From a bacterium (GTDB lineage: Bacteria; Zhuqueibacterota; Zhuqueibacteria; Residuimicrobiales; Krinioviventaceae), in the NCBI GenBank assembly GCA_963674595.2, contig CAXXFV010000003.1, positions 96,001 through 160,000 on the forward strand: a DNA stretch of 64,000 nt. The letters run 5' to 3'. Below the pieces are notes generated by a model. That model had not been told where the DNA came from and searched no databases. It saw only the letters and a list, made by a program, of their open reading frames with translations. A program made the translations under genes and the position numbers. Position 1 is the first letter of the stretch; each line of letters starts with the position of its first letter. Positions 3,335 through 31,326 of the stretch are shown piece by piece.

Positions 3335-4170
3335 GTCGGAATACTACCCAGGACTAATACTGGATTGAGACATAGCTATATACTGCTTGAAAAATCTTTG
3401 ACTCGCCGGGTCGGAATACTACCCAGGACTAATACTGGATTGAGACATTGGCTATTTCAATTAGATTATCAAAGTAACCTATTTGTCGGAATACTACCCA
3501 GGACTAATACTGGATTGAGACATCTTTAATAAAACTCCTTTACCAGTGTAGTCTCCCTCCGTCGGAATACTACCCAGGACTAATACTGGATTGAGACTTT
3601 AAAAATCTATTTTTGCCATCTCCGCAGCATCTCCGTCGGAATACTACCCAGGACTAATACTGGATTGAGACATTATAACCGGGTAAGCCAGGAAGATCAG
3701 TGGCGACCAGTCGGAATACTACCCAGGACTAATACTGGATTGAGACTTTTCAATAAGCAAACTCGTTGGCATTTGGATTTTTGATGTCGGAATACTACCC
3801 AGGACTAATACTGGATTGAGACAACATCTGAGAAACTATTGTAAGAAATGCCCAAATAATGTCGGAATACTACCCAGGACTAATACTGGATTGAGACTTT
3901 TTTCACATCTCTTTCAATTTGCCCACGTTGTGCAGTCGGAATACTACCCAGGACTAATACTGGATTGAGACAATTAAAGTGTAGAGCCACGAATGCGTGT
4001 CATGTAATGTCGGAATACTACCCAGGACTAATACTGGATTGAGACTTTATTTTTTTTGGAAGATTTCCAGGGCCACATAATGCGTCGGAATACTACCCAG
4101 GACTAATACTGGATTGAGACAGAATTCATATCCGTGAAATTGCAATAAAAAAATGGACACCTAGTTAAGT

Positions 4171-4992
4171 TTAAGCTGCTTTATTAAATTTTAAGAATTG
4201 TACTGGTGACATATTGCCCAAAAAGGAATGAATTCTTTTTCGGTTGTAAAATATTTCAATATATTCAAATATTGATTGCTTCGCAATTAATCGTGTTTCA
4301 TAAGTATGATGATAAATCAGTTCTTTTTTCAAAGTACCAAAAAAGCTTTCAGCAACAGCGTTGTCGTAGCAGTTTCCTTTTCCGGACATACTTTGGACCA
4401 TTTGAAAAAGAGCTAACATTTTTCTGAATTCTTTACATGCATATTGAACACCACGGTCCGAATGAAAAATCAAATCTGTTGAAGGACGAAAACGATGATA
4501 TGCATGTTTTAGGGCCGGGATTGTTGTTGAAGAAGCATGCAGGTTGTTACTCATGGCCCAGCCGACAACCTGGCGATTGTATAAATCAATGATCACTGTC
4601 AGGTACAACCATCCTTTGCGAGTCGGGATGTATGTAATATCAGAAACCCAGACTTTATTGGGTTGATTGACTGTAAAATTCTGTTGTAAAAGATTTGGTG
4701 ATATTGGCAGTCTGTGATCACTATTTGTGGTTACTTTGAATTTACGTTTTGTTTTTGCACAAATTTTGTTCTTTCTCATTAAACGAGCAACACGCGGACG
4801 GCTGACAATCAAGTTTTCCTTATGTAACTCTTGTGTTATTCTGGGACTGCCATAGCTTCCTCTGGATTCCTTGTGGATATGTTTGATCCGTTCAAGTATC
4901 TTTTTGTTTTCCAGTTCTCGTTGACTCATTGGTCGCTTGCTCCAGGTATAAAACCCGCCCCGGCTGACATTGAGAACCTGGCACATTTTCAC
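4171..4992 (-). CDS. IS3 transposase OrfB (DDE integrase core); probably joined to OrfA by -1 frameshift
   Basis: YGSPRI, WVSDITY, HSDRGVQY, DNAVAESFFGTLKKE, YNRKRIHS motifs; frame extends upstream (KFGFIQKHQQEFPIV). Confidence 0.95.
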   Translation of the reverse strand: MKMCQVLNVSRGGFYTWSKRPMSQRELENKKILERIKHIHKESRGSYGSPRITQELHKENLIVSRPRVARLMRKNKICAKTKRKFKVTTNSDHRLPISPNLLQQNFTVNQPNKVWVSDITYIPTRKGWLYLTVIIDLYNRQVVGWAMSNNLHASSTTIPALKHAYHRFRPSTDLIFHSDRGVQYACKEFRKMLALFQMVQSMSGKGNCYDNAVAESFFGTLKKELIYHHTYETRLIAKQSIFEYIEIFYNRKRIHSFLGNMSPVQFLKFNKAA

Positions 4993-5033
4993 TATTGGGA
5001 ATTCCTGTTGATGCTTTTGGATAAACCCAAACT

Positions 5034-5330
5034 TTAATGGGACGGTTTTGAGAAAATGGCCACAGCTTTTTTTAATATATCCCGCTCCAGTTTTACGTCT
5101 GCAAGTTCTTTACGCAGTTTCTGTATTTCATCACTTTCTTTGCTGTTCCCTAGTCCTGGAAAGGAATGTTCTTTATCAATTTTGTATTCTCGAACCCACT
5201 TGGAGAGAAGGTTAGGCTCAATACCAAGATTTCTGGCAACTTCTGAAGCATTACCATTGCTTTTAGAAAGTACAAGCTGAACAGCTTCTATTTTGAATTC
5301 TTTTGTGTAACGTCGTCTTCTGTTTGTCAT
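5034..5330 (-). CDS. IS3 transposase OrfA (HTH)
   Basis: RRYTKEFKIEAVQLV...VARNLGI...ERDILKKAVAIFSK, typical of OrfA. Confidence 0.93.
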   Translation of the reverse strand: MTNRRRRYTKEFKIEAVQLVLSKSNGNASEVARNLGIEPNLLSKWVREYKIDKEHSFPGLGNSKESDEIQKLRKELADVKLERDILKKAVAIFSKPSH

Positions 5331-6388
5331 GTGGACACCTCCTTTGGTTTATAATATAAAAAGTGCTTAACTTTGTGTCCACTAAAATATAGCAACTTTA
5401 CCGTTTTGAGGATTCCTGGTAATTTGTCGGAATACTACCCAGGACTAATACTGGATTGAGACTTTATAGGCACCTGGGTTAGTCCAGGTCAAGACCTTCA
5501 GTCGGAATACTACCCAGGACTAATACTGGATTGAGACATTTGGGATTTATTAGACTAAACAGTTCCAATCTCAGTCGGAATACTACCCAGGACTAATACT
5601 GGATTGAGACACATTGAATTAAAATTGTTATTGTATGTATTGCAAAGTCGGAATACTACCCAGGACTAATACTGGATTGAGACAAAAAGACCGCAATCGG
5701 CGATAAACTCGTCTCCTTCATGTCGGAATACTACCCAGGACTAATACTGGATTGAGACATTGAAATACTTCATTAGATGTGTCCTTAACCATTAACCGTC
5801 GGAATACTACCCAGGACTAATACTGGATTGAGACTTTCGTTGGATCCATTGGTTGACCATTAGACATGATTTGTCGGAATACTACCCAGGACTAATACTG
5901 GATTGAGACTACGGTTATCCACTACCGCTCCAACCAACATCAACGGTCGGAATACTACCCAGGACTAATACTGGATTGAGACATCCCCATCACGAGAGGT
6001 GATCCTCCGCATCCAGGTCGGAATACTACCCAGGACTAATACTGGATTGAGACATTTGTAAGAAATTTTTGATTATTATAAACTTTCAATGTCGGAATAC
6101 TACCCAGGACTAATACTGGATTGAGACATCCATGGCGCCGGTTCGTTAAACGACATATGAACGCCAGTCGGAATACTACCCAGGACTAATACTGGATTGA
6201 GACACTGCCAAATCATTTTCGATAAAATAAATCCATGCTTTGTCGGAATACTACTCAGGACTAATACTGGATTGAGACTTGAATATGAACCATTTGTGCA
6301 CGTATAAAAATTACCGTCGGAATACTACCCAGGACTAATACTGGATTGAGACTTTTATGTGTTTAATGTTATGATAAATTTTCGTTTT

Positions 6389-6554: not shown

Positions 6555-7667
6555 ATGTCCAAAACACTCATCAGCCTAATAAGCGATCAAACAATTCCCA
6601 ATTTATTGTTAATAAGGGAATTCCCTGAAGTAGAGAATCATGTCTTTATTACAACACCGGAAATGGAAGCAAAAAAAAAATCCGATCATTTACAAAATGC
6701 GGCGAACTTAGCAGACACAAAAATTAATAAACTGATTGTGCAAGCGGACTCGCTTCTTGATGTTGAGGAAAAACTCGGGAAAGCAAACTTGACCGAGCAA
6801 AATCAATATATCATCAATTTAACTGGTGGAACCAAATTGATGTCGATAGGACTGTATAACTTCTTTCGGAACTCAAAATTAATGTGCGATATGTATTATA
6901 TTGATATTCGCAAGCACACATATCGCAAGGTTTTTCCGGTGGTAAAGAAAAAGGAAAAACAGTTTAAAGGGAATTTGGGGCTACAAGAGTATTTAACCGG
7001 CTATGGTCTAGGCATAAAAAATTCGAATCAAATAAATGACCTTACTTGTGAGCCGGAGGTTACATCCTCATTTTATAAAAAATATCTTTCTTTTAGCGAT
7101 TTTGACCTCAGTTTGCTTTCAGCCTTGCGGGCCAATCGCAAAAGGAAATTACAACTGGATGCAACAGAAGCAACCATGTTAAAAAAACGATGGGGCATTA
7201 CGCTTTCTAATGAAGGATTTATAGATAAAAGTGAAATTCATTTTTTAACTGGTGAATGGTTTGAGGAATATGTTTATTCGTGGATAAAATCATACCTCAA
7301 TCTAAAGGATGAGCAAATCGGCACCGGAGTATCTATTACGCGTAAGGAAGTAGAAAATGAATTTGATGTTTTGTTCTATCATAATCATACTTTGTCAGTA
7401 ATTGAATGTAAAACTGGTTTGTGGAACAGTACTGCGAATCGGAATATTCTTGGAGATACACTGTATAAACTGGACGCATTAAGAAGCGATTTTGGCCTTC
7501 GTGTTAAACCGTATATATTCACTCTAGCAGAACGTGGGGACGAAAAGTATAATATCCGGGAACATCACGAAGAACGGGCAAAATGGATGGGTGTTGAGAT
7601 TGTTGACAGATCAATTTTATTAAATCCGGAAAAGCGGGCAATGTTGATGAATAAAATTAAGGGATGA
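6555..7667 (+). CDS. card1: Card1/Can2-like cOA-activated nuclease (CARF + DUF1887 PD-(D/E)xK)
   Basis: N-terminal SLISDQTIPN, CARF motif NLTGGTKLMS, nuclease motifs GEWFEEYV and NEFDV...IECKTG. Confidence 0.88.
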   Translation: MSKTLISLISDQTIPNLLLIREFPEVENHVFITTPEMEAKKKSDHLQNAANLADTKINKLIVQADSLLDVEEKLGKANLTEQNQYIINLTGGTKLMSIGLYNFFRNSKLMCDMYYIDIRKHTYRKVFPVVKKKEKQFKGNLGLQEYLTGYGLGIKNSNQINDLTCEPEVTSSFYKKYLSFSDFDLSLLSALRANRKRKLQLDATEATMLKKRWGITLSNEGFIDKSEIHFLTGEWFEEYVYSWIKSYLNLKDEQIGTGVSITRKEVENEFDVLFYHNHTLSVIECKTGLWNSTANRNILGDTLYKLDALRSDFGLRVKPYIFTLAERGDEKYNIREHHEERAKWMGVEIVDRSILLNPEKRAMLMNKIKG

Positions 7668-7751: not shown

Positions 7752-10724
7752 ATGTCTAAATTATTCGACCAGCTCACAAGTGATACCACTCTAACGACTG
7801 CATGGGAAAAGGTAAGATCAAACGCCGGGGCAGCAGGTGTCGATCAGATTACTGTGAGACACTTTGAGGAAAATGTCAATGAAAAGCTGATTATCCTCAA
7901 AACCTCTCTAATCGACGGTTCATACCAGCCCTTGCCTTTAAAAACATTTCGAATTAATAAAGAGGACGGACGAAAACGTACTTTACATATTCCCACAGTT
8001 CGAGATAGGATTGTCGCTCAAGCTTTAGTGATGGTAATTCAGCCGATTTATGAAAAGATATTCCACAATTGCAGCTATGCATACAGGCCGGGATTATCTT
8101 CTAAAAAAGCATTGGATCGTGTTGAACGAAATCTAAAGCGTGGCAGGGTTTGGGTTCTTAACCTTGATATTATGGATTTTTTTGACAGTGTTAACAGAGC
8201 CCTTTTGATGAATTTGCTTGAACAGGAAATAGCAGATAAAAATATCCAGAAAATAGTCCGGTTGCTAATAGATTCATTTGAAAATGAAACCAACTCGGGG
8301 ATTGCACAAGGTCTGCCCCTCTCCCCTTTGCTATCCAATATTTATTTACACCCGTTGGATGACCGACTCGTGCGTGCACAATGGAATTACATCCGATATT
8401 CGGATAATATTTTAGTATTGGACAAAGAAGAATCACAGATAAACAAAGCATTTGATTGGATTAAAGAAGAGATGGAAAAACTGGATTTGACATGGAGCGA
8501 AGAAAAAACAGCTATTGTTCATTTAAAATCAGGCTTTTCATTCCTTGGTTTTCATTTCAATGAAAAGGGTAAACAGCCGGATAGACCTGCATTCGAAAGA
8601 CTGGACAAACGCATAGGTAGTCTGCTGGGAAAAGCTTTTCAATATACCGATGCACAAATGAAAAGCAAATTAGAGGCAATACTTCGTGGTTGGCTTAATT
8701 ACTTTGATATAAATGCAGATGATAAAAAAGAAATATTGGCTCAAGTTGATCAGAATATTCCGGGAGACGACAATGCACTTCCACGCAAAATAATCAAAGT
8801 AGTATTGGCATATCAGCTGGGAGATGAAGAAAGTGCACGGAATGAATTGAAAGCAGAAGATATTATGACTTCGCAGGATGCAAGGCTTAATTTCCAGTGG
8901 GGAATTATATGTGATATATTAGGTTTCCAAAATGAGGCAAGAGACAGCTATTTAGCAGCCTTTCGACAGGAACCAAACGATCCCGAAACAGCCTTTCAAA
9001 TAGGCTTATACTATTTAAAGCGAAACCAGCACGACCAGGCCATTCGTTATTTACAAAAATCAGTACAGTTAGATTCTGAAACTGCATTATACCAATTTAC
9101 ACTTGGCATTGCCCTAAAAAATTATTCACTGCATGGCGCTGCCGGAAAAGCTTTGAAAAAGGCATACGACCTGGAACCATCCCTCAGACATATATTAGAC
9201 AAAACTCCCAAACCAAGTGATAACGATGAGAGATACAAAAAATTTTCAGATAATGATATTGATTTATTTCTTAGACTATTCAATGGTCGGGAAGGTGTGC
9301 ATGCAATACAATGGCTTAATGATGATGGTAGAACGGGATACTCTAGTGTAAAGAACCGGATTTCTCCTTCTGACATAAAAGCCCACTGGCAGGGTGGTAT
9401 TACGCTGGGCATGTACTTGATGCGGATGGATAATACTGTCAGCCATCTTGTTTTTGATATTGATGTTACCAGACAGGCTAGGAGTTTAATTTCTGATGAG
9501 GAAAATTTGCATGAATGGCAGGAGTTTGTACTGAATGATGTGCATCTTGTCAGGTCAGTTTTAAACGATCTGGGCATTCATGCGGTGGCCGAAGACTCCG
9601 GTTACAAAGGTGCTCATTTATGGGTATTTTTTAACGAACCTCAACCTGCCCGACGTATTATTAATTTTGCGAGAAAAGTAATCCAAAAAGCAGGGCCACC
9701 ACCAACAGGACTTCACCGGGAAATATTCCCCAATCAACCTTCTGTTTCGGAAAAAGCACTAGGACCTCTCGTCAAAATTCCCATGGGTTTGCACAAGTTG
9801 ACGCAAAAGAGATGCGAATTTCTAAATGAAACAGGCCAACCGGTTAATAGTCCATTTGACTTTATAAAAAAAATAAAGGCTGTAACAACAAAAGAACTGC
9901 TTACAGCTTTCGAGAAAACCAGGTCAACTGCAAGGCTCGACAAAACCAAAATAAAAAAACAAGACAGTGAAAAGCTTGACAAAATTTTTAATGGTTGTAA
10001 CGTTCTTGCCTATTTGCAGGAAAAGGCCATAAAAGAACACCAACTATCCCACATGGACCGATTAACCTTATTGTGTGTTATCTCTTTCCTTGGCGAGGCA
10101 GGGAGGCAAAAGCTACATGAAATTATCAGTAACTCAACAAATTACGATTTCAAAATTACAGAAAGATGGTATCAACGAAAACGGGGTTATCCTGTCAGTT
10201 GTCCAAAAATTCGAATTTGGCAAAGCAACATTACCCCTGCTGTAGGCTGCTATTGTAAGTTTAAAGAAAATCCTGGAAATTATCCTTCTCCTCTACTTCA
10301 CGCAGATGAAAATTATATCAGTAAATTAAAAAAGAAAATTAACAAAGAACTGAAACAAAACAAAAGCATTAAAGATTCGCCAAAACAAAGCCAAGACTAT
10401 GCTGAGCCCAAAGCAAACAATACCGAAAAAGACAAACACGAAACGAGATCAAATGACAAAATAGTCGAGAACAATAAATCTCAATTGAATAACAAGGAGT
10501 CAAATAATGGTTCAGGAGTCCAAAAAGAAATATTAGAAGATATTGTAGAAAAATATTTAAAATTGCTGACGAAAAAGCGGAATATTGAACGACAACTTTT
10601 ACAGATTGAAGAAAAACTAGACCAAATAGCAACAGATAATGGTGGCGATACAATTGAGACCAAGATGGGAAAATTGATAAAAAAGACGGAAAACGGCAAA
10701 ACAAAATGGCTATTAGAATTATAA
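7752..10724 (+). CDS. CRISPR-associated reverse transcriptase - TPR - AEP primase-polymerase fusion (CART-CAPP type)
   Basis: RT motifs AAGVDQ, IPTVRDR, SYAYRPG, LDIMDFFD, QGLPLSP, YSDN, FLGF. TPR repeats at about aa 380-475. AEP motifs FDID, SGYKGAHLW, EIFP/VKIP. Cys-containing PriCT-like domain. Directly upstream of cas1. Confidence 0.9.
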   Translation: MSKLFDQLTSDTTLTTAWEKVRSNAGAAGVDQITVRHFEENVNEKLIILKTSLIDGSYQPLPLKTFRINKEDGRKRTLHIPTVRDRIVAQALVMVIQPIYEKIFHNCSYAYRPGLSSKKALDRVERNLKRGRVWVLNLDIMDFFDSVNRALLMNLLEQEIADKNIQKIVRLLIDSFENETNSGIAQGLPLSPLLSNIYLHPLDDRLVRAQWNYIRYSDNILVLDKEESQINKAFDWIKEEMEKLDLTWSEEKTAIVHLKSGFSFLGFHFNEKGKQPDRPAFERLDKRIGSLLGKAFQYTDAQMKSKLEAILRGWLNYFDINADDKKEILAQVDQNIPGDDNALPRKIIKVVLAYQLGDEESARNELKAEDIMTSQDARLNFQWGIICDILGFQNEARDSYLAAFRQEPNDPETAFQIGLYYLKRNQHDQAIRYLQKSVQLDSETALYQFTLGIALKNYSLHGAAGKALKKAYDLEPSLRHILDKTPKPSDNDERYKKFSDNDIDLFLRLFNGREGVHAIQWLNDDGRTGYSSVKNRISPSDIKAHWQGGITLGMYLMRMDNTVSHLVFDIDVTRQARSLISDEENLHEWQEFVLNDVHLVRSVLNDLGIHAVAEDSGYKGAHLWVFFNEPQPARRIINFARKVIQKAGPPPTGLHREIFPNQPSVSEKALGPLVKIPMGLHKLTQKRCEFLNETGQPVNSPFDFIKKIKAVTTKELLTAFEKTRSTARLDKTKIKKQDSEKLDKIFNGCNVLAYLQEKAIKEHQLSHMDRLTLLCVISFLGEAGRQKLHEIISNSTNYDFKITERWYQRKRGYPVSCPKIRIWQSNITPAVGCYCKFKENPGNYPSPLLHADENYISKLKKKINKELKQNKSIKDSPKQSQDYAEPKANNTEKDKHETRSNDKIVENNKSQLNNKESNNGSGVQKEILEDIVEKYLKLLTKKRNIERQLLQIEEKLDQIATDNGGDTIETKMGKLIKKTENGKTKWLLEL

Positions 10725-12317: not shown

Positions 12318-15300
12318 GTCGAAATACTACCCAGGACTAATACTGGATTGAGACTTTGTTCAGCAATTCCATAAATCTGAATTACAAACGGTCGAAATAC
12401 TACCCAGGACTAATACTGGATTGAGACAGATGCTGCTGAGTGTACCAGCAAGAAGCCGTGAACGGTCGAAATACTACCCAGGACTAATACTGGATTGAGA
12501 CATCATAAATACAAAAAACGTAACAAAAAATTTTAAAGGTCGAAATACTACCCAGGACTAATACTGGATTGAGACATCTTCACTAAAGATCTGAATACTA
12601 CATTCACTAGGCAGTCGAAATACTACCCAGGACTAATACTGGATTGAGACGTCATTTGCAATGAATTAAAAAAAATGAAAACAGGCAAGTCGAAATACTA
12701 CCCAGGACTAATACTGGATTGAGACTTAAAACAACCAACCATGTTTTTAATGATTTCATGATGTCGAAATACTACCCAGGACTAATACTGGATTGAGACA
12801 ATACTACGATCAGTATGATAATTATTGCAACAAAAAGTCGAAATACTACCCAGGACTAATACTGGATTGAGACAAAATCGTACAGTCTTCCATCTTCAGT
12901 TCGATCAATGCGTCGAAATACTACCCAGGACTAATACTGGATTGAGACATTACAAAGCTGGCACCATTTGTCGTCTTTGAATTTAGTCGAAATACTACCC
13001 AGGACTAATACTGGATTGAGACATATATTCAGAAAATGCATTTTCTAAAGAAATACATGTCGAAATACTACCCAGGACTAATACTGGATTGAGACTTTCT
13101 GCAAATACAATTTCAAATTCATCTTTTTTAAGTCGAAATACTACCCAGGACTAATACTGGATTGAGACAACTCTTTTTACAGCTGTTTTTGTGATAACCG
13201 GCACAGGAGTCGAAATACTACCCAGGACTAATACTGGATTGAGACATTTTGGCTTCGACCATTAAGGCCTTTGTCCATTTAAAGTCGAAATACTACCCAG
13301 GACTAATACTGGATTGAGACTTACAATCACTCTTGCTATAATAAACATAACAAGTCCCCGTCGAAATACTACCCAGGACTAATACTGGATTGAGACTTTA
13401 TAAGCTTAATACGCATTGTCCTTTATGCTCCTTGTCGAAATACTACCCAGGACTAATACTGGATTGAGACTATGAACGCCACAAATGTCTAATTCATAAC
13501 CATGGTGTCGAAATACTACCCAGGACTAATACTGGATTGAGACATTTTGCGCCCTCTGTTGTCTGGTTTAATTCATATTGGTCGAAATACTACCCAGGAC
13601 TAATACTGGATTGAGACTCCTTCAGCCCATGGCCATACAACAGCCAGACTGAATGTCGAAATACTACCCAGGACTAATACTGGATTGAGACAGTTTTAAT
13701 TATTGGCTAATTTTTTAACCAATTCAATGTCGAAATACTACCCAGGACTAATACTGGATTGAGACTTATTGACTTCGAAAAATGCAAAATTCGTATCACC
13801 TGTCGAAATACTACCCAGGACTAATACTGGATTGAGACCAAAATAATATACTCAATAATATACTCAGCTTCATAACGTCGAAATACTACCCAGGACTAAT
13901 ACTGGATTGAGACAAATATCTTACCCGCCACATGGGTTTTAACCATATAGGTCGAAATACTACCCAGGACTAATACTGGATTGAGACTTTTTTTCTCTTC
14001 TATAATGATTAGAAGACGATTGGGTCGAAATACTACCCAGGACTAATACTGGATTGAGACATTTACTCACCTGCAGCCTCTTTCTCAAAGTATTCTTTGT
14101 CGAAATACTACCCAGGACTAATACTGGATTGAGACTTAAAACAACCAACCATGTTTTTAATGATTTCATGATGTCGAAATACTACCCAGGACTAATACTG
14201 GATTGAGACAATACTACGATCAGTATGATAATTATTGCAACAAAAAGTCGAAATACTACCCAGGACTAATACTGGATTGAGACAAAATCGTACAGTCTTC
14301 CATCTTCAGTTCGATCAATGCGTCGAAATACTACCCAGGACTAATACTGGATTGAGACATTACAAAGCTGGCACCATTTGTCGTCTTTGAATTTAGTCGA
14401 AATACTACCCAGGACTAATACTGGATTGAGACATATATTCAGAAAATGCATTTTCTAAAGAAATACATGTCGAAATACTACCCAGGACTAATACTGGATT
14501 GAGACTTTCTGCAAATACAATTTCAAATTCATCTTTTTTAAGTCGAAATACTACCCAGGACTAATACTGGATTGAGACAACTCTTTTTACAGCTGTTTTT
14601 GTGATAACCGGCACAGGAGTCGAAATACTACCCAGGACTAATACTGGATTGAGACATTTTGGCTTCGACCATTAAGGCCTTTGTCCATTTAAAGTCGAAA
14701 TACTACCCAGGACTAATACTGGATTGAGACTTACAATCACTCTTGCTATAATAAACATAACAAGTCCCCGTCGAAATACTACCCAGGACTAATACTGGAT
14801 TGAGACTTTATAAGCTTAATACGCATTGTCCTTTATGCTCCTTGTCGAAATACTACCCAGGACTAATACTGGATTGAGACGGTTAGTACGGTACAATTTT
14901 CTAGACAACAATTCATGAGTCGAAATACTACCCAGGACTAATACTGGATTGAGACTTATAAAATCAAATAGTGTACAAGACGCAATCCTTGGTCGAAATA
15001 CTACCCAGGACTAATACTGGATTGAGACATATAATCCGTCACTACCAATCAGCTGTGGTACATTTTGTCGAAATACTACCCAGGACTAATACTGGATTGA
15101 GACACATAGATTCCACCATAGTCATTACAAAAATCATTATTGTCGAAATACTACCCAGGACTAATACTGGATTGAGACTTTTGATACATCTGGTCAACAA
15201 TTTCTGATGGCGGAAGTCGAAATACTACCCAGGACTAATACTGGATTGAGACTCATATCTTACCTTTCTCATACCGAGCTCTCGGACAAGTCGAAATACT

Positions 15301-15843
15301 ACCCAGGACTAATACTGGATTGAGACATTACATTGGGTTCACCTATTGTTTTGGCCATAAGGCGTCGAAATACTACCCAGGACTAATACTGGATTGAGAC
15401 AAAATTGTTACTGGCGAACGTAAAAACTCAGATCCAAGTCGAAATACTACCCAGGACTAATACTGGATTGAGACGAAATTATTCCGCAAGAAGCCAGATA
15501 TTTCTAATAATGTCGAAATACTACCCAGGACTAATACTGGATTGAGACATATTCTACTACTTTTTTTATTTTTGTGTTATAAGGTCGAAATACTACCCAG
15601 GACTAATACTGGATTGAGACATAATAATCAAATTTATGAAAAAAATTAACCATTACAGTCGAAATACTACCCAGGACTAATACTGGATTGAGACTTTAAC
15701 TCCTGCTAGAGCCAGCATTATCCATTTTGCCAGTCGAAATACTACCCAGGACTAATACTGGATTGAGACTTAAAGAAAAAAGAGCGAGCGGCAATTGACG
15801 TATTTTGTCGAAATACTACCCAGGACTAATACTGGATTGAGAC
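12318..15843 (+). CRISPR. CRISPR array 2: 48 x 37-bp repeat GTCGAAATACTACCCAGGACTAATACTGGATTGAGAC, 47 spacers (37 unique)
   Basis: Counted repeats from 12318 to 15807; differs from the array 1 repeat only at position 5 (A vs G). Spacers 6-15 recur as spacers 25-34. Confidence 0.99.
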
Positions 15844-15883
15844 AATTCTTGTTATATAAGAAGCATTTTTTTACTGTTATTCG

Positions 15884-15920
15884 GTGGAAATAGACCTAAT
15901 TACCACGGAACGATTGAGAC
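15884..15920 (+). repeat. Diverged terminal CRISPR repeat of array 2, at the junction with the prophage portal gene
   Basis: GTGGAAATAGACCTAATTACCACGGAACGATTGAGAC, 37 bp, after a 40-bp spacer; 22/37 identical to the repeat, with the last 9 nt intact. Confidence 0.8.
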
Positions 15921-16631
15921 CCCTCCTTCAATCAGTAACACAAATGTCGGATCACCGATCCTGACAACAGCGTTTTTAATAGATTGCTGAATTCTTAACA
16001 ATATCTCAGCAACAAAAGGCATGGAATTAAATAGACTCACACCCTGGGGATGGCCGTCTCTTAGATCAAATGTTAAATACTGAACAAATTCCGGGTGCTC
16101 TAATATAACAGGTTTTGCAGCTTCATGAGGTATGGAAGCTAACCACAATCTACTGTCTTTCCGGATAAACCGGACCTTTGAAGCATCACCGACTTTTAGC
16201 CGGTCTACACCATTCAAACCTGCAAAAGGAACTGTCTCAAAGACACCGTACCCATTGGCCAGAGCTGAATCATAGACTTGTTGTAAACACCCGTGAAGTC
16301 CTTTGTGGAAATACCCAACCCTGATCTCTTTTTTAAAATTGTTCAAGGCTTTTAAAACATTCGGATTATCACAACGATATTCAAAATCACCGATCAATCT
16401 CCGAAGCTTTAATACAGCTACATCCAAAATAGGAATGGCTTCGCGGAGAATATTATATATCTTGAGATTGTACCGTAACGGCTCATATCCGTTTAAATAG
16501 GTCTGAAATGGGCTGTCACTTGCAGAATAAAGTTGGGATTTAACAATAACATTGTTGGATTGTTTTGGTGGGAAATATTTATTAAGATTGAATTTTGGAA
16601 GGTTCATTAACTGCCCATATATAGAATGCAC
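15900..16631 (-). pseudogene. Phage portal protein, C-terminally truncated
   Basis: YNILREAIPILDVAVLKLRRLIG and PQGVSLFNSMPFVAEILLRI resemble portal proteins; lies downstream of terL. Only about 240 aa, and the last codons (VSIVPW*) are read from the reverse complement of the terminal repeat. Confidence 0.7.
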
Positions 16632-16740
16632 TCAAACAACACGTTCTATATATAGCAGAATAGGGGTAATTAATCAATATTTTGTGGGTTATACACCCAT
16701 AGCTTGTAAAAAGGTAGTTTCTCTTGGATGGAATTGCAAT

Positions 16741-16836
16741 AAAAAAACGGACCCATGAGAGACAATGCACTATGGAAGGTAGGTTCGGGATACTCCCTAG
16801 CCTTCGGTTAGTACATGCAGTCAGAGGTCCGTTAAA
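16741..16836 (-). other. Long imperfect hairpin followed by T-tract (terminator/structured RNA, or degenerate attC)
   Basis: Minus strand AACGGACC...GAC-TGCATGTACTA..GAAGGCTAGG...CCTACCTTC..TAGTGCATTGTC...GGTCCGTTTTTTT. Confidence 0.55.
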
Positions 16837-16928
16837 GTCCCAATCCCGCTGTAGAAATCAAGTCTCTTCTTAAAATTGCCGATCTTAAAATGTCTCAATC
16901 TCGGCGGAGCGTAGCGACGCAAGGCCGC
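16837..16928 (-). repeat. Two CRISPR-repeat-like units (ending GATTGAGAC and GATTGGGAC) 55 bp apart
   Basis: Minus strand GCGGCCTTGCGTCGCTACGCTCCGCCGAGATTGAGAC (16928-16892) and TTAAGAAGAGACTTGATTTCTACAGCGGGATTGGGAC (16873-16837); the second is 23/37 identical to the repeat at 15884. Confidence 0.5.
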
Positions 16929-17002
16929 TTATAATAAGAAATTGCTAATACTTCTCTATTATCTTGGCATTATTCATCAACAACTCCTGAATCTATATTT
17001 CC

Positions 17003-17133
17003 GCCTAACGTTTAGTGTAACCTGTCCGGCGAGAATAATGCAGCCAGCCGGAAAAAGGACAGGTAACACAATTATTGAAACATTTTAAATAACGTACCGG
17101 CGCAAGCCGGTCAGGTTGACACGTATGTTATGT
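17003..17133 (-). other. attC site (131 bp)
   Basis: Minus strand R'' ACATAAC ... R' GTTAGGC; arms AACGTTTAGTGTAACCTGTCCGGC / GCCGGTCAGGTTGACACGTATGTT pair with extrahelical bases. Confidence 0.85.
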
Positions 17134-17144
17134 GATTTATGTAG

Positions 17145-18113
17145 CTATAAATCAACATCTTTATATATTTCTTTAACTTCTTTAATTGATTTGATTTTCT
17201 CACCCCATTCAGATACAAACTTTTTTCTAAAATGCTCTAACTCATTAGGTCTATAATACTCAATAATCATCCAATATAATTTCAAAATTGTTGATATAGT
17301 CGTTATTAATAAAACATCAGAATTTTTTAAACTTCTAATATGATCTAAATATAGTTTACCTTTACTAATACTTATATGCTCTTGAAATGAAGTTCCATGC
17401 ATCACATTTGAATAATGCCTATAAAATATCTCATATTCTGCTCTACGATTTAGTCTTTCAGCCATATCACAAATTGAACTTGGGCCAGAAAGTTTATACC
17501 AGGGAGCTTCTTGCTTCTTTATTGACTTTTCTTTTTGCTTTTCAAAAGCTAAATTTATTTCTTTGTAATCCTCAGATAGTAAGAAATTATTATAAGTTTC
17601 CAATTCTTTTTTATATAATTCATTATTAATTTTTAATTCTTCAATTATGAATTCATCGAATTTTTCCAAAATCTCTAAAAATTTATCACTTTCGCTAAAA
17701 CCTGTAGTTACTTTTTTAGCCAAATCCATCTCCTGACGTAAGATCCAAACATAATATTGTTTAGACCGAGATTTTGTATTTTTTTCAAATATCCATTCTA
17801 TATATAAACTTGACTCAAATAAGGCTCTTGCTTGAAGTTGAGCTGTAAATATTGCTCCCTTAGCAAATAAAATTTCAATTGAATCAAGCATACTGACAAC
17901 ATGTTTTAAAAGGACTGATAAAATGACTATATCTTCAATTTCACGCTTTGAACTTGAAAAACATCTGGGCATTAAATTAGTACCATAATCAACTAAAGAT
18001 TTTAACAAATAGATTTGGGATTGGAAAAATTTCTTTACATCCTTTTCCACTTTTTCACGATTTAATATATTTTTATATGCATCATCTTTTTCGGGCATAT
18101 TACTAATACTCAA
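17145..18113 (-). CDS. Integron cassette gene, DUF5677-like (HEPN-like) protein
   Basis: ARALFESSLYIEWI and YRHYSNVMHG motifs; very AT-rich; bounded by attC sites. Confidence 0.6.
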   Translation of the reverse strand: MSISNMPEKDDAYKNILNREKVEKDVKKFFQSQIYLLKSLVDYGTNLMPRCFSSSKREIEDIVILSVLLKHVVSMLDSIEILFAKGAIFTAQLQARALFESSLYIEWIFEKNTKSRSKQYYVWILRQEMDLAKKVTTGFSESDKFLEILEKFDEFIIEELKINNELYKKELETYNNFLLSEDYKEINLAFEKQKEKSIKKQEAPWYKLSGPSSICDMAERLNRRAEYEIFYRHYSNVMHGTSFQEHISISKGKLYLDHIRSLKNSDVLLITTISTILKLYWMIIEYYRPNELEHFRKKFVSEWGEKIKSIKEVKEIYKDVDL

Positions 18114-18135
18114 TCAAATATTGATTTTTATTACC

Positions 18136-18270
18136 ACCTAACGTTGCGTTTCACCTGCCAAAGGGCTGAGACGCACGATCGTCAAATCAAAGGCTGAAAT
18201 TCATGAGAGCACTGTCCGATAACAATTACAAACACTGCCCTTTGGTCAGAGTGCAAACGCTTTGTTAGCG
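18136..18270 (-). other. attC site (135 bp)
   Basis: Minus strand R'' CGCTAAC ... R' GTTAGGT; arms GCGTTTCACCTGCCAAAGGGC / GCCCTTTGGTCAGAGTGCAAACGC. Confidence 0.87.
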
Positions 18271-18305
18271 TAAAATTCACAAATATATTTAAAAAAGATA
18301 TGTCT

Positions 18306-19565
18306 TCATTTTAAAAAGGTCATTTTGCATACCTTACTAAACTTGTTTTCTACATCAAACTTATAGAAATAGACACCACTACTTACGACCTGACCGTTGA
18401 AATCTGTGCCGTTCCAGATAAAGGAGTGAAAGCCTGTAGCCTGATTTTCAATTCTCCATCGCCTGACTAGTTTTCCATAAATATCGTAAATTGAAAGAGT
18501 CACATTATTCACTATCTTTAGAACATAGCAGATATGTGTGGTAGAGTTGAAAGGATTCGGGTAATTAGCATAAAGGCGAAATTGATTGGATTTACTGATC
18601 GGATGTTTATCTTCAATCGTTGTGTGTGTATTCCTATGAATCAATGTAAAATTTCTTGTATAATTCGGATTTAAATAGCCATAAAAAAAGCGCGGATTAA
18701 AAGTAATGTTTGAGACAATCCTCCGATAACCGATTCCCTTAACGATAGTATTTCCTATTTGGTACGTTCGCCAATTTGCTCTTACCATAGCTGCAACTTT
18801 ATTCGAGACATTACCTTCTATTGAATGAAGCGTTGTACCACTAATGTTTCTCACCAGTCCGCTATGAGACCTATCAATCCCTGTCGTATTTGAGAATAAT
18901 ACATAATCCCCTGCTTTTGGTTCAAGATGATTGTCATCTCCAATTTGCCAATTTGTATTAATTTCTTCAATCGTCATGAATTGCCAATTTTCATTTCTCC
19001 CGAATCCAGCAACAATCCTATAAACTGTTGACATATTCCAATCTTCAGTACAATTGCCACCGTCTGTTGCACCTCCCCCAAAGGGATCTCCTGCTTGCCA
19101 ATAAACCCAGGAGACGAATTCGCTGCACCAGCCTCCTCCATGCCCATGATACTTGCCCGGTGTGTTCCCATCCGTATTTCCCAACTCGTTTTGTGCAATA
19201 GATACAATTGTCTCACCATTTACTTCGGAGTTGTCTATTACATCAGCAAACTCATACGAACAGGGTATAATGGTATACCTGGTATTATTAGAAATGTTAG
19301 TAAACTCATAAGTTCCGTTTTCATTTGTATAGTTTGTAACAACATTATTATTCCCCAATAACAGGACCTGAATATTTGATATTGGTTGGTTGTTTGTGTC
19401 GCTTATTGTGCCCCCAATGGTTATTACCGAATTTTTTGTCTGGTAATTACATGTGTCTTCATCTGAATAGTATAAATATTGTTCATCTCTTTCCTCAGCC
19501 GATAATGTGGAGAAAACTGAACAGTCAATTATTATTAAACTTAGAACGAATATTATATCTTTCAT
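18306..19565 (-). CDS. Integron cassette gene: secreted CHAP-domain amidase with carboxypeptidase-regulatory-like domain and FlgD-Ig/T9SS-like CTD
   Basis: Signal peptide; CHAP motifs WCSEFVSW, HSGLV, SIEGN; CTD NYPNPFN...WNGTD...SSGVYFY. Confidence 0.78.
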   Translation of the reverse strand: MKDIIFVLSLIIIDCSVFSTLSAEERDEQYLYYSDEDTCNYQTKNSVITIGGTISDTNNQPISNIQVLLLGNNNVVTNYTNENGTYEFTNISNNTRYTIIPCSYEFADVIDNSEVNGETIVSIAQNELGNTDGNTPGKYHGHGGGWCSEFVSWVYWQAGDPFGGGATDGGNCTEDWNMSTVYRIVAGFGRNENWQFMTIEEINTNWQIGDDNHLEPKAGDYVLFSNTTGIDRSHSGLVRNISGTTLHSIEGNVSNKVAAMVRANWRTYQIGNTIVKGIGYRRIVSNITFNPRFFYGYLNPNYTRNFTLIHRNTHTTIEDKHPISKSNQFRLYANYPNPFNSTTHICYVLKIVNNVTLSIYDIYGKLVRRWRIENQATGFHSFIWNGTDFNGQVVSSGVYFYKFDVENKFSKVCKMTFLK

Positions 19566-19646
19566 ATTTAATTTATTCCATGATTAAGGCAAAATAGAAT
19601 TTTTATTCAAACCTTCTGTAATTGCTTTTATACTATCACTTTATAT

Positions 19647-19678
19647 ACGCTAACATAGTATTTAACGAGTTGGATAAC
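19647..19678 (-). other. attI site
   Basis: Minus strand GTTATCCAACTCGTTAAATACTATG/TTAGCGT; GTTAGCGT is the exact complement of the first cassette's R'' ACGCTAAC. Confidence 0.7.
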
Positions 19679-19819
19679 TTATTATAGATTGCAAAAGTTT
19701 GTCGTATAATAAAATCCGGCAATCAAATATAAGTTAGATAAAATCAAAAGGTTGTTGCTTAATAATAATGCCTTGAGTTTTATGTTATACGACTTGTATA
19801 ATATAACCTGTTTTACAGG

Positions 19820-20812
19820 CTATAAATCATCAATCGGACTTCGAATGCCTTTCCCACCTTTATTCAGCACATGCGTATATATCATTGTTGTGTTCAAGTT
19901 TTTGTGCCCTAATAATTCCTGAATTGTGCGTATGTCATATCCGGCTTCTAAAAGATGTGTAGCAAATGAATGCCGAAGTGTATGACACCCTATATGTTTT
20001 GCAATACCGGATTTGAGTTTTGCTTCACGCATGGCTCGTTGGATCATCCATTCGCCTTGATGGTGCCGCCGAAGAATTCCGCTCTCAGGATCTTTTGAAA
20101 TATTGGGGGCAGGAAACACCCATTGCCATGCTGTGGATGTTGAGGCATTTGGATATTTTTTATCAAGTGCAAAAGGCAGGGCAACAGTACCATATCCCTG
20201 GGAAATATCTTTTTTATGAAGACGCTTTACTTTTTCAATATGTACTTGAAATTCTTTGATGTATTGTTCGGGCAAAACTGTGATGCGATCTTTGGCACCT
20301 TTTGAATTGTGTACGGTGATTTGCTTGTATCCAAAATCAATATCTTTAATTCGCAATCCAAGGCATTCTCGTTGACGTAAACCCGAACCGTACATTAAAC
20401 CTGCCATTAGTTTTGCTACACCGTTTAAATGTGCAAAGATACTTTTAACTTCCTCACGGGTTAATACAACAGGCAGCTTGACGGGCTTTTTCGCCCATAT
20501 AGTTTTGTCCAATTCCCCAATATTTTTATTGATAATATTTTTAAATAGAAAGATTATTGCACATAATGCTTGATTCTGAGTACTTGCAGACACATTTTCT
20601 TTAACAGCAAGATGCGATAAAAACCGGTTTATTTCTTTCTCGCCCATATCTTTGGGATGTTGTTTATTATGAAACAGCACAAACCGTCGTACCCAAAAAA
20701 CATACGCTTGCTCTGTTTTGCGGGAATAATGCTTTGTGCGCAGCACGGCCTGTAACTGTTCCAGCAGTTTTATTGGTTTGACAACAGGAATGTGATCTTC
20801 AACCAGGTGCAA
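19820..20812 (-). CDS. intI: Integron integrase IntI
   Basis: [19 protein letters not shown], IntI-specific insertion [14 protein letters not shown]...WQWVFPA...[28 protein letters not shown]. Confidence 0.96.
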
Positions 20813-21001
20813 TCTCTTCCTCGTGTATGCTTTTGAATCCCATTTTTATGTGTGGTAAATCAGTAAAAGGCATCAGGATTTGCCATGTGCGACCAAATTG
20901 TCCTGTAAAATCGTCCTTTTGTCCGATAATATAATATTACAAACTTTTTATTTTTCCCGCAAGCTGTTTTTAAAAAATTTAATCACCCCCTCTATCACAG
21001 A

Positions 21002-21031
21002 AAAAAGCCCCACATATCTGCATGCAGGGCT
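21002..21031 (-). terminator. Intrinsic terminator after terL and the small downstream ORF
   Basis: Minus strand AGCCCTGCATGCAGATATGTGGGGCTTTTTT. Confidence 0.55.
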
Positions 21032-21064
21032 GGACAAGCTATTAAATTCTCCACTTTTCACTCG

Positions 21065-21259
21065 TCAATACTTGTAATAAACATCTCTTAAATAACTCAC
21101 AGAAAACCCGGTCTTTCTAGAGACCTCCCGGATTGCATCACTTGCCGGACTTTTAGAGCCACTCTTTTCAAATATTTTACTCATTTTATAAATATGATTT
21201 CTTAATATCGTTAACCGCTTCTTTGTCGATTCTAACTTTGGATTTATTTGTACTGGCAT
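21065..21259 (-). CDS. Small phage protein, possible HTH
   Basis: AAGGA RBS; DAIREVSRKTGFSVSYLRDVYY is HTH-like. Confidence 0.55.
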   Translation of the reverse strand: MPVQINPKLESTKKRLTILRNHIYKMSKIFEKSGSKSPASDAIREVSRKTGFSVSYLRDVYYKY

Positions 21260-21280
21260 ATCATTCCTTTCTATTATAAT

Positions 21281-22960
21281 TTATCTGGCCTTTCCAGCTC
21301 TGCTCCACACCATTGATCCCCCTATTGTTCCACCAATTTCTTCACTGATTAAAGAATAAGCTGCGGCATGGAGTAAGTGATCTCCACTAATGGGCTTACT
21401 CCAAACCTGACGATTCGTATTAGGGTCAAAATATCTGACTGGTAATGTAAAATGGTCTAATAACTCACCATCAGATACTTTTCTCCAGTTTCTCGGAAGG
21501 ATAAATCCATCCTGCTCACTTTTTAAAATATTTTTCAAAACACGGTCAAGAGCTTGTGTCCGGTCAAGAGCGATTATTTTATTATCAATATCAACTGTCT
21601 GGTCCTGTAAACTCCCCCCTTTTTTATACCAACACAGCCATACTTTACCAGGTCGGGATGCTTGTAACTCTTTTGCTTTTGTGGTATCATATTCACCGTC
21701 TATTGTACTAACTTCAACATTATACTGATCAATAAGAAAATCCAGGGTATCCCAATCATAAGCTGCTCCACAAGCAACAAGACGTTTTCTTCCATTATAT
21801 CGTTCCCAGATGAAATAGTGATGCCGTCCACCTGGATCAACTCCCATAAAAGTATTATTTCCTGTCGATGGCATGAGATAATCATCTTTACATTTTTCCA
21901 TCAAAGCTTCAGTTATTTTACTTCCCTTGGGAGCAAAAGCACGACCCAGGTTTGAATTGTGAAACAACTGTGTTTTAGTAGTATCTCCCAGCGCTTCCTG
22001 AAATTCATTCCATAGCTCCAAGAGGTCAGTATCAAAACTGATCAACCTTGAAAACCTGTAACCGACTCTTGGTTTATCCGGATATTTGGCAATCCATTCA
22101 CCAACCCATGGTTCAGATATAATCTTTTCACATTTATCACAGATGATTTGAGGTTTTCCATTTTCCTCTCTTATGGGTTTAAAAATCAATCCTTCAGAAT
22201 CAACCTGCCGGACAACATGTTTAAACCAGTCCAGTTCAATGTATTTATTACAATGCTGACACCGGGTCAGGTATCGGGATTGATTGGTAGACCTGTATAA
22301 ACCATCCACACCACAATTCTCAACAGTCGGTCGTGATGAATAGCGGAGCATTTTATATTCAGATGCTTTTAACCGGTCTTTTAACTGGTCCAGATTATCC
22401 ATGTCTGATTCATCATATTCATCAACAAATGCGATATCCACAGGATTTTCGACAAACTCTGTCCTTGAATTCGATCCCACAAACCGCATGGTCCCTTTAC
22501 CATAATGTTTCTGTAGGACACTGTCACTTTCACCCCCTTCATCCAAATGACTTTTGTACAAGGGAACATAACTCAAAAGTTTGTCAATCCGGTCATGTAC
22601 AAAGTTTGATCTCAGGGTCTGGTTCGGCATGACATACAAACCACGTAATCCACTGGAAACATAATGCAAGAGTTCAACCAGCAACCGCTCCGTAATTCCA
22701 ACCTGTACCGGTTTGATGAACACGATAAACTGAGGCATTTCAGTTTTAGGTTTTATACCCTTGGCAATGTCATTGAAAAAGCCAGGCGGTGCATATAAAT
22801 CCTGTAGCCAGTCTCTGTTGATAAATGACATTCTTTTAAAATGCCGGTTTAAATGATGTTCTCTGGCCAAACCAAACACAGGTGCCAAGGTATTAATACT
22901 CTCCCTGAATTTTAATAATTGAGCAGCCGTTAAGGATGTCAAATACTCAGGAGTGACCAT
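21281..22960 (-). CDS. terL: Terminase large subunit (GpA-like)
   Basis: Start moved to ATG 22960. Walker A KPVQVGITE, Walker B AFVDEYD, CxxC pairs, RNase H-like MGVDPG, C-terminal DHLLHA. Confidence 0.88.
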   Translation of the reverse strand: MVTPEYLTSLTAAQLLKFRESINTLAPVFGLAREHHLNRHFKRMSFINRDWLQDLYAPPGFFNDIAKGIKPKTEMPQFIVFIKPVQVGITERLLVELLHYVSSGLRGLYVMPNQTLRSNFVHDRIDKLLSYVPLYKSHLDEGGESDSVLQKHYGKGTMRFVGSNSRTEFVENPVDIAFVDEYDESDMDNLDQLKDRLKASEYKMLRYSSRPTVENCGVDGLYRSTNQSRYLTRCQHCNKYIELDWFKHVVRQVDSEGLIFKPIREENGKPQIICDKCEKIISEPWVGEWIAKYPDKPRVGYRFSRLISFDTDLLELWNEFQEALGDTTKTQLFHNSNLGRAFAPKGSKITEALMEKCKDDYLMPSTGNNTFMGVDPGGRHHYFIWERYNGRKRLVACGAAYDWDTLDFLIDQYNVEVSTIDGEYDTTKAKELQASRPGKVWLCWYKKGGSLQDQTVDIDNKIIALDRTQALDRVLKNILKSEQDGFILPRNWRKVSDGELLDHFTLPVRYFDPNTNRQVWSKPISGDHLLHAAAYSLISEEIGGTIGGSMVWSRAGKAR

Positions 22961-23351
22961 TTTCACCCCTGTTCTTGAAAATGGCCAGCTCCTCAGTAAG
23001 AATATCAAGCGCTCTGTCTTTGGTCATCTCTTTCGTTTCAACAGGACCACCATCAGCACCGGTAATTTCCTGCCTCCGGGAATATCCCCGGTCCTTACCC
23101 TTTGTCGACAGGATAAACTTAATGGCCCACGGCTGAGCATTCAGAGCAGCATCTTCAAGTTTCAGTTCAACTTTGTCAAGGGTTCGTTCTTTTTCTTCTT
23201 CGAAAACAGCTTTTACCGTAGCATACTTTTGTATATAGTTATATATAGTTTTACGCTCACAGCCTAAGGCCATAGCCGCATAAGTAGCATTACCTCGTGT
23301 TTTCCTTAAAGCCCCAATGACCTGTTTTGTCGTAAAAATATTTTCTGCCAT
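22947..23351 (-). CDS. terS: Terminase small subunit (putative)
   Basis: N-terminal HTH (AAMALGCERKTIYNY), WAIKFILSTKGKDRGY, EITGADGGPV; overlaps terL. Confidence 0.75.
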   Translation of the reverse strand: MAENIFTTKQVIGALRKTRGNATYAAMALGCERKTIYNYIQKYATVKAVFEEEKERTLDKVELKLEDAALNAQPWAIKFILSTKGKDRGYSRRQEITGADGGPVETKEMTKDRALDILTEELAIFKNRGENGHS

Positions 23352-23404
23352 AAAAAAAAGCCTACCAGTGTGTAAAATGTGTAAAATGTTTAAAGCGTAA
23401 CATG

Positions 23405-24091
23405 TTAATTACTATTCTTTAAAGTTACATATTGGAAGCCATCCGGTCCGCTTCCGATCATTGTCAAATCAGGCCTGAATAACGGAGGTCTCACGACCGA
23501 CGGCTCCCAGGTCGAAAGCTCTTGTTCCTGCGGTATCATCACAATCTTTCCGTTCTGAATATCTGACAAAACTTTTCTAAATAACCTGATTCCCATGGGC
23601 TGTAATTCACGCCGCCATAATGTGGAAGCCGTATCATCTGATCGGATAAAACAAAAGTCATGTGCCGCAATTGGTCCGGCATCAACATTATCTGTCAACC
23701 AATACACCGTACCACCCGTTACTTTTTCATTCATCTTGATGGACCAGTATATAGCATCCCGACCTCGATGCAATGGCAGCAATGAAGGATGAAAACCGAT
23801 CGCTCCAAATCTCGTTTTCAACCGGGTCTTTTTACTGATAAAATCATGGGAATGGGCAGCAATAATCAAATCCACATTATCCGGTAATGATTCAGCATTT
23901 AATTTTCCAGCTTCTACAAGAACGACTTTATCTCTGACTGCAGTATGATAAAGTCTGTCATATTTTCCACTATATGTTGACGGAGCACTGACACCGACAA
24001 TATTATATCCCTGTTCCTTCACCATGTCATAGACCAGTTTCCCAAAATACTTTTGACCTGTAATAAATATATTAATATCCTGTGGATTCAA
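23405..24091 (-). CDS. Formyltransferase family protein
   Basis: FHPSLLPLHRGRDAI, TGGTVYW, DAGPI motifs. Confidence 0.88.
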   Translation of the reverse strand: MNPQDINIFITGQKYFGKLVYDMVKEQGYNIVGVSAPSTYSGKYDRLYHTAVRDKVVLVEAGKLNAESLPDNVDLIIAAHSHDFISKKTRLKTRFGAIGFHPSLLPLHRGRDAIYWSIKMNEKVTGGTVYWLTDNVDAGPIAAHDFCFIRSDDTASTLWRRELQPMGIRLFRKVLSDIQNGKIVMIPQEQELSTWEPSVVRPPLFRPDLTMIGSGPDGFQYVTLKNSN

Positions 24092-31319: not shown

Positions 31320-31326
31320 GTCCCTC

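Follow-up and report, generated by a model that had tools for sequence, protein, structure and literature searches.

A probable chimera of CRISPR-array trailer and prophage-borne repeat-like element beside an integron

A prophage remnant in a draft genome of the bacterial family Krinioviventaceae carries, between a small integron and the broken portal gene of the phage, two short units that resemble the repeats of CRISPR arrays. We analysed them within a window of 64,000 nucleotides (nt), the whole stretch of DNA presented above, whose positions are used throughout. The original prediction had taken the units for CRISPR-repeat mimics in an integron cassette without an open reading frame (ORF). 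We interpret the sequence differently: positions 16837-16946 are probably a displaced copy, truncated at its 5' side, of the tail of an array of the repeat family that we call B, joined inside a terminator hairpin to a repeat-like element carried by the prophage.

The locus between integron and portal gene

Read on the minus strand, all of the features listed in the original prediction are in place (Table 1): the end of the last attC site of the integron, a 10-codon ORF behind an AGGAG motif, unit 1, a linker, unit 2 and a long hairpin with a T-tract, followed by prophage backbone and the portal gene. The units do lie in a prophage remnant, one that has terminase, portal, RecT and integrase genes. 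Unit 2 and the repeat at 15884 are inverted relative to each other and enclose, as had been described, the 916 base pairs (bp) from 15921 to 16836, which contain the 5' part of the portal gene. No paralogue was found for 16947-17003, and these ~57 nt after the R' box of attC may be the stump of a former cassette. Two plus-strand ORFs overlap the units (16724-16873, 49 amino acids (aa); 16942-17088, 48 aa); neither has support as a gene.

The genome contains several copies or remnants of one prophage family, of which the portal fragment, the terminase genes and ~15 kb beyond them are a part. The portal gene is present in five copies (97-98% amino-acid identity) and the large terminase gene, terL, in four to five, with DNA identities of 89-96%. 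Residues 1-237 of the portal fragment match an intact 467-aa portal protein on contig C10. The slot between terL and portal holds different cargo in each copy: histidine kinases and a lipase in the copy on contig C9, small unknown ORFs in that on C10, and the integron in the window. Homology to the C10 prophage resumes at 16835 on one side and at 20783 on the other.

The integron reported at this place is real, comprising the integrase IntI and two cassettes bounded by attC sites, and it ends at 17004. Both attC sites end in CAGGT..AACGTTAGG. It is a complete small integron (17004-20812) within the cargo slot of the prophage remnant. Homologues of both flanks of intI, without intI itself, are found on contig C29 (6727-7202).

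Table 1. Positions of features at the locus and of the split terminal repeats at related array ends (window positions, except where a locus label precedes them)
Feature	Position	Strand	Basis or remark
Terminal repeat of A array	15884-15920	+	truncated portal gene abuts its last base
Portal N-terminal fragment, 243-aa ORF	15900-16631	-	phrog_30703, E 7e-28, profile positions 4-205 of 386
Prophage backbone upstream of portal gene	16640-16741	-	carries motif TATGGGTGTATAACCCACAAAATATTGAT
Long imperfect hairpin and T-tract (terminator)	16836-16742	-	
Unit 2, degenerate B-family repeat	16873-16837	-	3' end GATTGGGAC, handle ATTGGGAC
Linker, 18 nt, ATTTTAAGATCGGCAATT	16891-16874	-	
Unit 1, GC-rich, 3' end GATTGAGAC	16928-16892	-	direct read
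Unit 1, make-up			last 29 nt of ~106-nt insert plus orphaned 8-nt handle ATTGAGAC (16899-16892)
AGGAG, then 10-codon ORF	ATG at 16977, TAG 16947-16945	-	direct read
Stretch between attC2 and trailer-derived part	17003-16929	-	trailer homology begins inside it, at 16946
R' box of attC2, GTTAGGC	17010-17004	-	direct read
attC of cassette 2 (attC2)	17004-17135	-	3' end common with attC1
Cassette 2 ORF, 322 aa	17145-18113	-	DUF5677
attC of cassette 1 (attC1)	18137-18268	-	bulged imperfect palindrome, paired CCTAAC/GTTAGC ends
Cassette 1 ORF, 419 aa	18306-19565	-	CHAP-like domain and T9SS sorting domain
attI-side crossover, GTTAGCG	19654-19648	-	homology to another contig stops exactly there
Integron integrase IntI	19820-20812	-	TIGR02249, 454 bits against a cut-off of 265; same strand as cassettes
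Prophage large terminase	21281-23008	-	terL
A-type array, 48 repeats, repeat GTCGAAATACTACCCAGGACTAATACTGGATTGAGAC	12318-15843	+	leader adjoins cas1-cas2
Split terminal repeat	L001:883-1025	-	
Split terminal repeat	L002:75-218	+	
Split terminal repeat	L003:374-517	+	
Split terminal repeat	L004:2122-2265	-	

Relation to array trailers and to other prophage copies

The genome contains two CRISPR systems that have to be told apart. The window holds three arrays of repeat family A on the plus strand, with 72 repeats in total, surrounded by genes for Cas6, Card1, a fusion of reverse transcriptase and primase, Cas1 and Cas2. A Cas10-like gene and RAMP genes lie just upstream of the window, and the A locus is therefore of type III, as had been stated for the neighbouring systems. 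A second type III locus, at 50-62 kb of contig C3 in this genome (G000:C3), the contig that also carries the window, has its own Cas6, Cas10-like gene, RAMP genes, reverse transcriptase and Cas1, and its arrays use a different repeat, B (GTAGAAATAGACCTAATCACCACGGAGGGATTGAGAC). The A and B repeats share 8 of the first 9 nt, all of the last 8 (8/8) and 7 of the 20 in the middle. Between the two loci the Cas1 proteins are 38% identical and the Cas6 proteins (G000:C3:60654-61622 in the B locus, window 2140-3117 in the A locus) only 28%; given this divergence of Cas6 and that of the repeat middles, the middle is plausibly the Cas6-specific part of the repeat.

The identity counts given earlier for unit 2 are exact (23/37 to the repeat at 15884, 18/37 to the local array repeat), but the local array is A-type and the units belong to the B family of the other type III locus. 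The repeat at 15884-15920 is itself of the B family, matching B at 33/37 and A at 22/37, and on these counts we rejected the idea that it is a decayed A repeat.

Unit 2 resembles CRISPR repeats beyond the background of the genome, as had been proposed. It matches the B repeat at 25/37, and in a scan of the whole genome (~13.2 million positions, both strands) every match of at least 25/37 outside the arrays was a trailer or prophage repeat unit, the best unrelated match being 24/37, at four positions. The same is not true of unit 1, whose overall identity of 18/37 is reached at 22,920 positions (0.17%) and whose hairpin (-11.4 kcal/mol, z -0.67) is no stabler than those of shuffled sequences, 44/200 being as good. 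What makes unit 1 real all the same is its recurrence in the four other trailers examined, each time at the 3' end of the split repeat. The long hairpin at 16742-16836 folds at -36.9 kcal/mol (z -4.95), and 0/200 shuffles were as good. No Rfam family reached its gathering score in the window; at E values of up to 5 the region 15700-21000 gave two chance matches only, and the five paralogous loci gave weak CRISPR-DR8 matches on B repeats only. Neither tRNA nor tmRNA genes were found in 15000-24000.

The source of the units is apparent from a paralogue. Positions 16742-16946 are 84.6% identical over 208 bp to C3:43730-43936, which lies 68 kb away on the contig of the window, directly downstream of a 63-repeat B array and in the same orientation. 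This stretch is thus probably a trailer copy that is truncated 5' of ~16946. At C3:43730-44024 the order is a split terminal repeat, an 18-nt linker, unit 2 with a perfect handle, the hairpin and a T-tract; the linker is identical to that in the window at 17/18 positions. Four B-array trailers (C3:43.9 kb, C3:66.3 kb, C29:107.7 kb and C9:149.7 kb) share this arrangement of the last repeat, in which 29 nt of repeat are followed by an insert of ~106 nt and then by the handle ATTGAGAC. Since 29 + 8 = 37, the repeat is split exactly at the would-be Cas6 cut. The inserts are 81-85% identical between copies, C29 having a second, partial copy after the first, and neither terminal inverted repeats nor a conserved ORF or Rfam match was found in them. 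In a consensus fold of the four split repeats both repeat halves pair across the insert (25 pairs, one of them changed on both sides); a single compensatory pair in four sequences is too little, and we do not claim a conserved structure. Two other trailers have a spacing of 7 nt instead of 18, and a different sequence.

The window keeps only the tail of the split repeat (16892-16946). Unit 1 is accordingly not the repeat mimic that it had been taken for, being the tail of the insert with nothing of the repeat but its 8-nt handle. The broader claim that the units derive from CRISPR repeats holds, through the match of unit 2 to B and the recurrence of unit 1 in B-array trailers. As in other arrays with degenerate terminal repeats, unit 2 is a decayed repeat, unit 1 bears the true 3' end of the last repeat, and the paralogue at C3:43730-44024 has both of them behind a long array, oriented as the array is, with a terminator last. 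The locus departs from such trailers in two ways: the insert interrupts the last repeat exactly 8 nt before its end, and the window copy, lying between integron and portal gene, has no array on its strand to which it is attached.

Unit 2 and its hairpin also form an element of the prophage family. Five copies are present in the genome: those in the window and in the trailer at C3:43.7 kb, and three phage-type copies on C10, C9 and C25. The portal gene comes directly after the element on C10 and C9. The C25 copy has no portal gene behind it, only a terL remnant ~8 kb upstream. Matching the B repeat at 24-26/37, the phage-type copies have kept 16-17 of the 20 B-specific middle positions, 3 of the 9 at the 5' end and 5-6 of the 8 in the handle. 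The prophage element is intergenic, and its host has a matching B-type type III locus with its own Cas6. All three phage-type copies (3/3) have a box, AAA(G/A)TTTG, 4-11 nt upstream, which is -7-like and near consensus; the strict promoter consensus of the Bacteroidota type, TAnnTTTG, is not matched. The box is absent from the window copy, where a single sigma-70-like match is below shuffle expectation (2 found, 4.8 expected).

A comparison of C10 with C9 shows 7/37 differences in the repeat part and 1/~103 in the remainder, hairpin and tail; the hairpin, and not the repeat, is the conserved part. On C9 (L027:8538-8898) and C25 the unit is flanked by a direct repeat of ~27 nt (TATGGGTG.ATTACCCACAAAATAT), which corresponds to the backbone motif TATGGGTGTATAACCCACAAAATATTGAT of the window. 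Two portal copies, at C3:67.2 kb and C3:11.0 kb, carry the motif once and lack the unit, which is what insertion of a moron would lead one to expect. The unit is solitary on C10 and C25 but not in the window, where a handle lies 18 nt upstream and an array terminal repeat 916 bp downstream. A more distant prophage, on C26, has a plain terminator upstream of its portal gene and no repeat-like unit. Outside the assembly, a contig from the sequencing run of another organism has an intact portal gene with a phage-type unit, and positions 16794-16940 of the window recur without a difference in a contig of a further run.

The window copy changes its affinity along its length. Unit 1 matches the trailer at 34/37, against 3/37 for C10, 0/37 for C9 and 21/37 for C25, and the linker, with its 17/18 to the trailer, scores 14/18 to C10 and 13/18 to C9 (phage range 12-14/18). 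Unit 2 likewise matches the trailer (C3:43827-43863) at 32/37, C10 at 23/37 and C9 at 24/37. In the hairpin the identities are 84/95 to the trailer, 91/95 to both C10 and C9 and 85/95 to C25, and in the downstream backbone (16640-16741) they are 60/102 to the trailer, 95/102 to C10, 96/102 to C9 and 64/102 to C25. We took as informative those positions at which the trailer differs from both C10 and C9. In alignment columns 1-52, 17 such sites are trailer-like, three phage-like and two neither; in columns 53-143, one is trailer-like and 18 are phage-like. Near 16820, within the hairpin's 5' arm, the sequence thus switches from trailer-like on the 5' side to phage-like on the 3' side.

Homologous recombination or gene conversion between the solitary repeat and hairpin element of the prophage and an array trailer probably produced this chimera. 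The ~130 nt of sequence that the two share would have been the substrate, perhaps with help from the RecT and YqaJ proteins of the prophage. The window prophage encodes both at 30-36 kb, together with a repressor-like helix-turn-helix protein and a tyrosine integrase; the RecT/YqaJ recombination pair occupies 30132-32265, and short homologies like that of the ~130-nt element are sites where it could favour exchange. The integron would merely sit in the adjoining variable cargo slot, and the window copy would have lost the promoter-like box of the phage-type copies. The window element most likely acts only as a terminator, ending transcription of the cargo or cassettes before the portal gene. 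Units 1 and 2 may be passengers in this copy, a view that we hold less firmly than that of a displaced trailer. Any read-through RNA could be cut by the Cas6 of the B system at unit 2, and the product would be without a target.

Several points weigh against a displaced trailer joined to a prophage element. On the minus strand an integron, and no array, lies upstream of the units. In columns 40-50 some of the informative sites hang on how the alignment is shifted by one base. Since a prophage remnant lies only 1 kb from even the 'native' trailer at C3:43.7 kb, transfer from array to phage and from phage to array are both possible. It is also possible that the chimera is expressed and active. 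Relatives were sought: the trailer query matched 0/60 other genomes, and a covariance model of the element (R1) matched 0/150, its own five source copies being matched by construction. The portal protein had no confirmed relative in a viral contig collection, the hairpin patterns had 0 matches in viral contigs and 0 in metagenome contigs, and the unit 1 pattern had 0 in genome contigs and 0 in metagenome contigs. The B-repeat pattern matched one unrelated, GC-rich metagenome-assembled genome, which has four related repeats and no such trailer. With no independent lineage found, all inference draws on paralogues in one draft genome (37 contigs) and a few contigs from sequencing runs.

Alternative readings and known systems

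The cassette reading has the hairpin at 16742-16836 serve as an attC site, through which IntI would mobilise the units as an ORF-less cassette. The stretch in question begins exactly at the crossover point of the preceding attC, between the G and the first T of the GTTRRRY box, here GTTAGGC at 17010-17004, and the hairpin has AAC and GTT at its base and, at ~90 nt, an attC-like length. However, the outer box beyond AAC/GTT is not complementary (CTTT vs TTTT), the stem has neither an unpaired spacer nor the shared end of the real attC sites, and the sequence upstream of it is a paralogue of a CRISPR trailer. In a motif search of the region only two sites had the shared end ..A(A/C)CGTTAGG, leaving no third attC, and the hairpin also stands at four other loci, with no attC of this type or IntI homologue found nearby. 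Because a third attC is missing and the hairpin occurs at four integron-free loci, we rejected the cassette and give it next to no credence: the only downstream hairpin is a terminator, and 16742-16946 is a trailer paralogue. This test uses motifs, single folds and paralogy; RNAalifold gave no useful consensus for the two attC sites. The locus does resemble what has been described of integrons in phage genomes (PMC9892861), in having a complete small integron in a prophage remnant with the stretch in question beginning at the last R' box, but lacking a closing attC this stretch is no cassette. A false lead is thereby removed, that of RNA anti-CRISPRs travelling as integron cassettes.

A different function has been suggested for solitary repeat units of phages, which in one report are proposed to be Cas decoys or aids to array integration (PMC10651486). 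Here such a decoy, akin to the RNA anti-CRISPRs (Racr) of that report, would be a small RNA consisting of the B-type repeat and hairpin of the prophage, tying up the Cas6 or the type III effector subunits of the host, and gene conversion from the host trailer would have made the window copy more repeat-like. We consider this unlikely. In its favour, the phage-type copies preserve most of the repeat middle, the very part in which A and B differ; they are intergenic, with a near-consensus -7-like box before them and a strong terminator at the end; the direct repeats on C9 and C25, and the two portal copies without a unit, are moron-like; and the host holds a matching type III system. Racr candidates are, moreover, reported for almost all CRISPR types (PMC10651486). 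Counter to this, the window copy has no promoter box and fewer sigma-70-like matches than shuffled sequence, and even the phage-type copies fall short of the strict promoter consensus. They have also lost the conserved 5' end and part of the handle, their repeat part changes fast relative to the hairpin and tail (C10 against C9), and 0/145 host spacers match the prophage.

Like a Racr, each of the copies on C10, C9 and C25 is one intergenic repeat-like unit of the CRISPR type of its host, behind a promoter-like box. They differ in that the unit is fused to a ~95-nt hairpin, and in the target: the nine Racr candidates whose tests are given in that report were directed against I-C, I-E, I-F and V-A systems (PMC10651486), and the system here is of type III. 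The window copy differs further, being neither solitary nor equipped with the box. A Racr-like role is possible mainly for the phage-type element, and not for the window copy as a cassette.

CreA/CreR-type regulation is documented mainly in type I and V-A systems. Its counterpart at this locus would be a mini-array in which unit 1, linker and unit 2 are processed into a guide against a host or cas transcript. Two handle-bearing units do surround a short spacer-like stretch that is conserved between two copies, they probably come from the terminal unit of an array, and this is also the origin suggested for mini-arrays with degenerate distal repeats, which are reported near arrays in 10-14% of type III systems (10.1101/2023.03.03.530964). 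Yet unit 1 is only a handle and lacks the body of a repeat (7/20 in the middle), its 'spacer' measures 18 nt, and in the two trailers with 7-nt spacing the sequence is different. Compared with the whole genome, the would-be guide matched its own paralogue and otherwise gave only 11-16 nt matches at chance level (E 0.69 or worse), and no cas or toxin target; lacking the partially complementary target of CreA/CreR systems, the mini-array seems to us highly improbable.

Prophage integration into arrays through repeat-like sites has been described (10.1101/2020.10.09.333658), and there, as here, a repeat-like sequence of a phage and CRISPR arrays have exchanged sequence. The junctions in the window are of another kind than in that description, with a chimeric hairpin element and a truncated portal gene that runs straight into the final base of a repeat, in place of clean attL and attR sites, and the window prophage has its own integrase at the far end. 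Tn7-like elements that target CRISPR repeats are also reported (PMC11837452). In a keyword search of the literature neither a trailer/phage chimera of this kind nor a terminal repeat interrupted where it would be cleaved was found to have been reported, which is not proof of absence. As a displaced trailer joined to a prophage element, the window copy would show, in a concrete natural case, that the solitary repeat of a phage and the trailer of a host CRISPR array have exchanged sequence.

The two roles could also be combined. The prophage might carry a type III-directed RNA decoy derived from a captured terminal unit of the host's own array (degenerate repeat plus terminator), which recombination with trailers would refresh and from which fusion of phage and array would follow; this we regard as doubtful. 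Homology shared between phage and array would explain why prophage remnants abut three array ends and sit 1 kb from a fourth. If true, it would provide a natural origin for Racr genes and the first case in a type III system to join both roles proposed for solitary repeats, Cas decoy and array recombination. Of these, the recombination role is visible in the sequence, and the decoy role becomes directly testable for type III.

Portal junctions and the two type III loci

Three copies of the portal gene, those in the window, at C3:66.4 kb and on C9, break off at an identical base following residue ~237, and each is joined there to the last base of a B-type repeat. A simple crossover between repeats was rejected as the source of this break, the orientation being inverted. 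The junction at 15884-15920 recurs at two B-type trailers; the block of repeat and portal fragment therefore seems to have been copied between array ends of the two different type III systems. A segment of prophage repressor and early genes flanks each type III locus on one side, and the other side ends at a portal gene that is truncated; the stretches concerned are G000:C3:36203-42668 and 77761-84058, together with 15921-36410 of the window. It looks as if the part from the portal C-terminus to the integrase had, in a series of copies of the prophage, been replaced by the CRISPR-Cas locus.

Within the A locus, Card1 is encoded at 6555-7667. The 990-aa fusion protein encoded at 7752-10724 joins a reverse transcriptase of the group II intron type to TPR repeats and a CRISPR-associated primase-polymerase, and its gene lies beside separate cas1 and cas2 genes. 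In the long A array ten consecutive spacers are duplicated exactly (12726-13433 and 14136-14843), and this internal duplication accounts for the only spacer matches, as 0/145 extracted spacers match outside the arrays, prophage included. One IS3-family element (99.9% identical between its copies) interrupts both an A and a B array, at window 4135-5400 and G000:C3:44650-45914, and sits inside a spacer in both. Its left end is identical at 22/24 positions to 16728-16751, the plus-strand T-tract and hairpin base.

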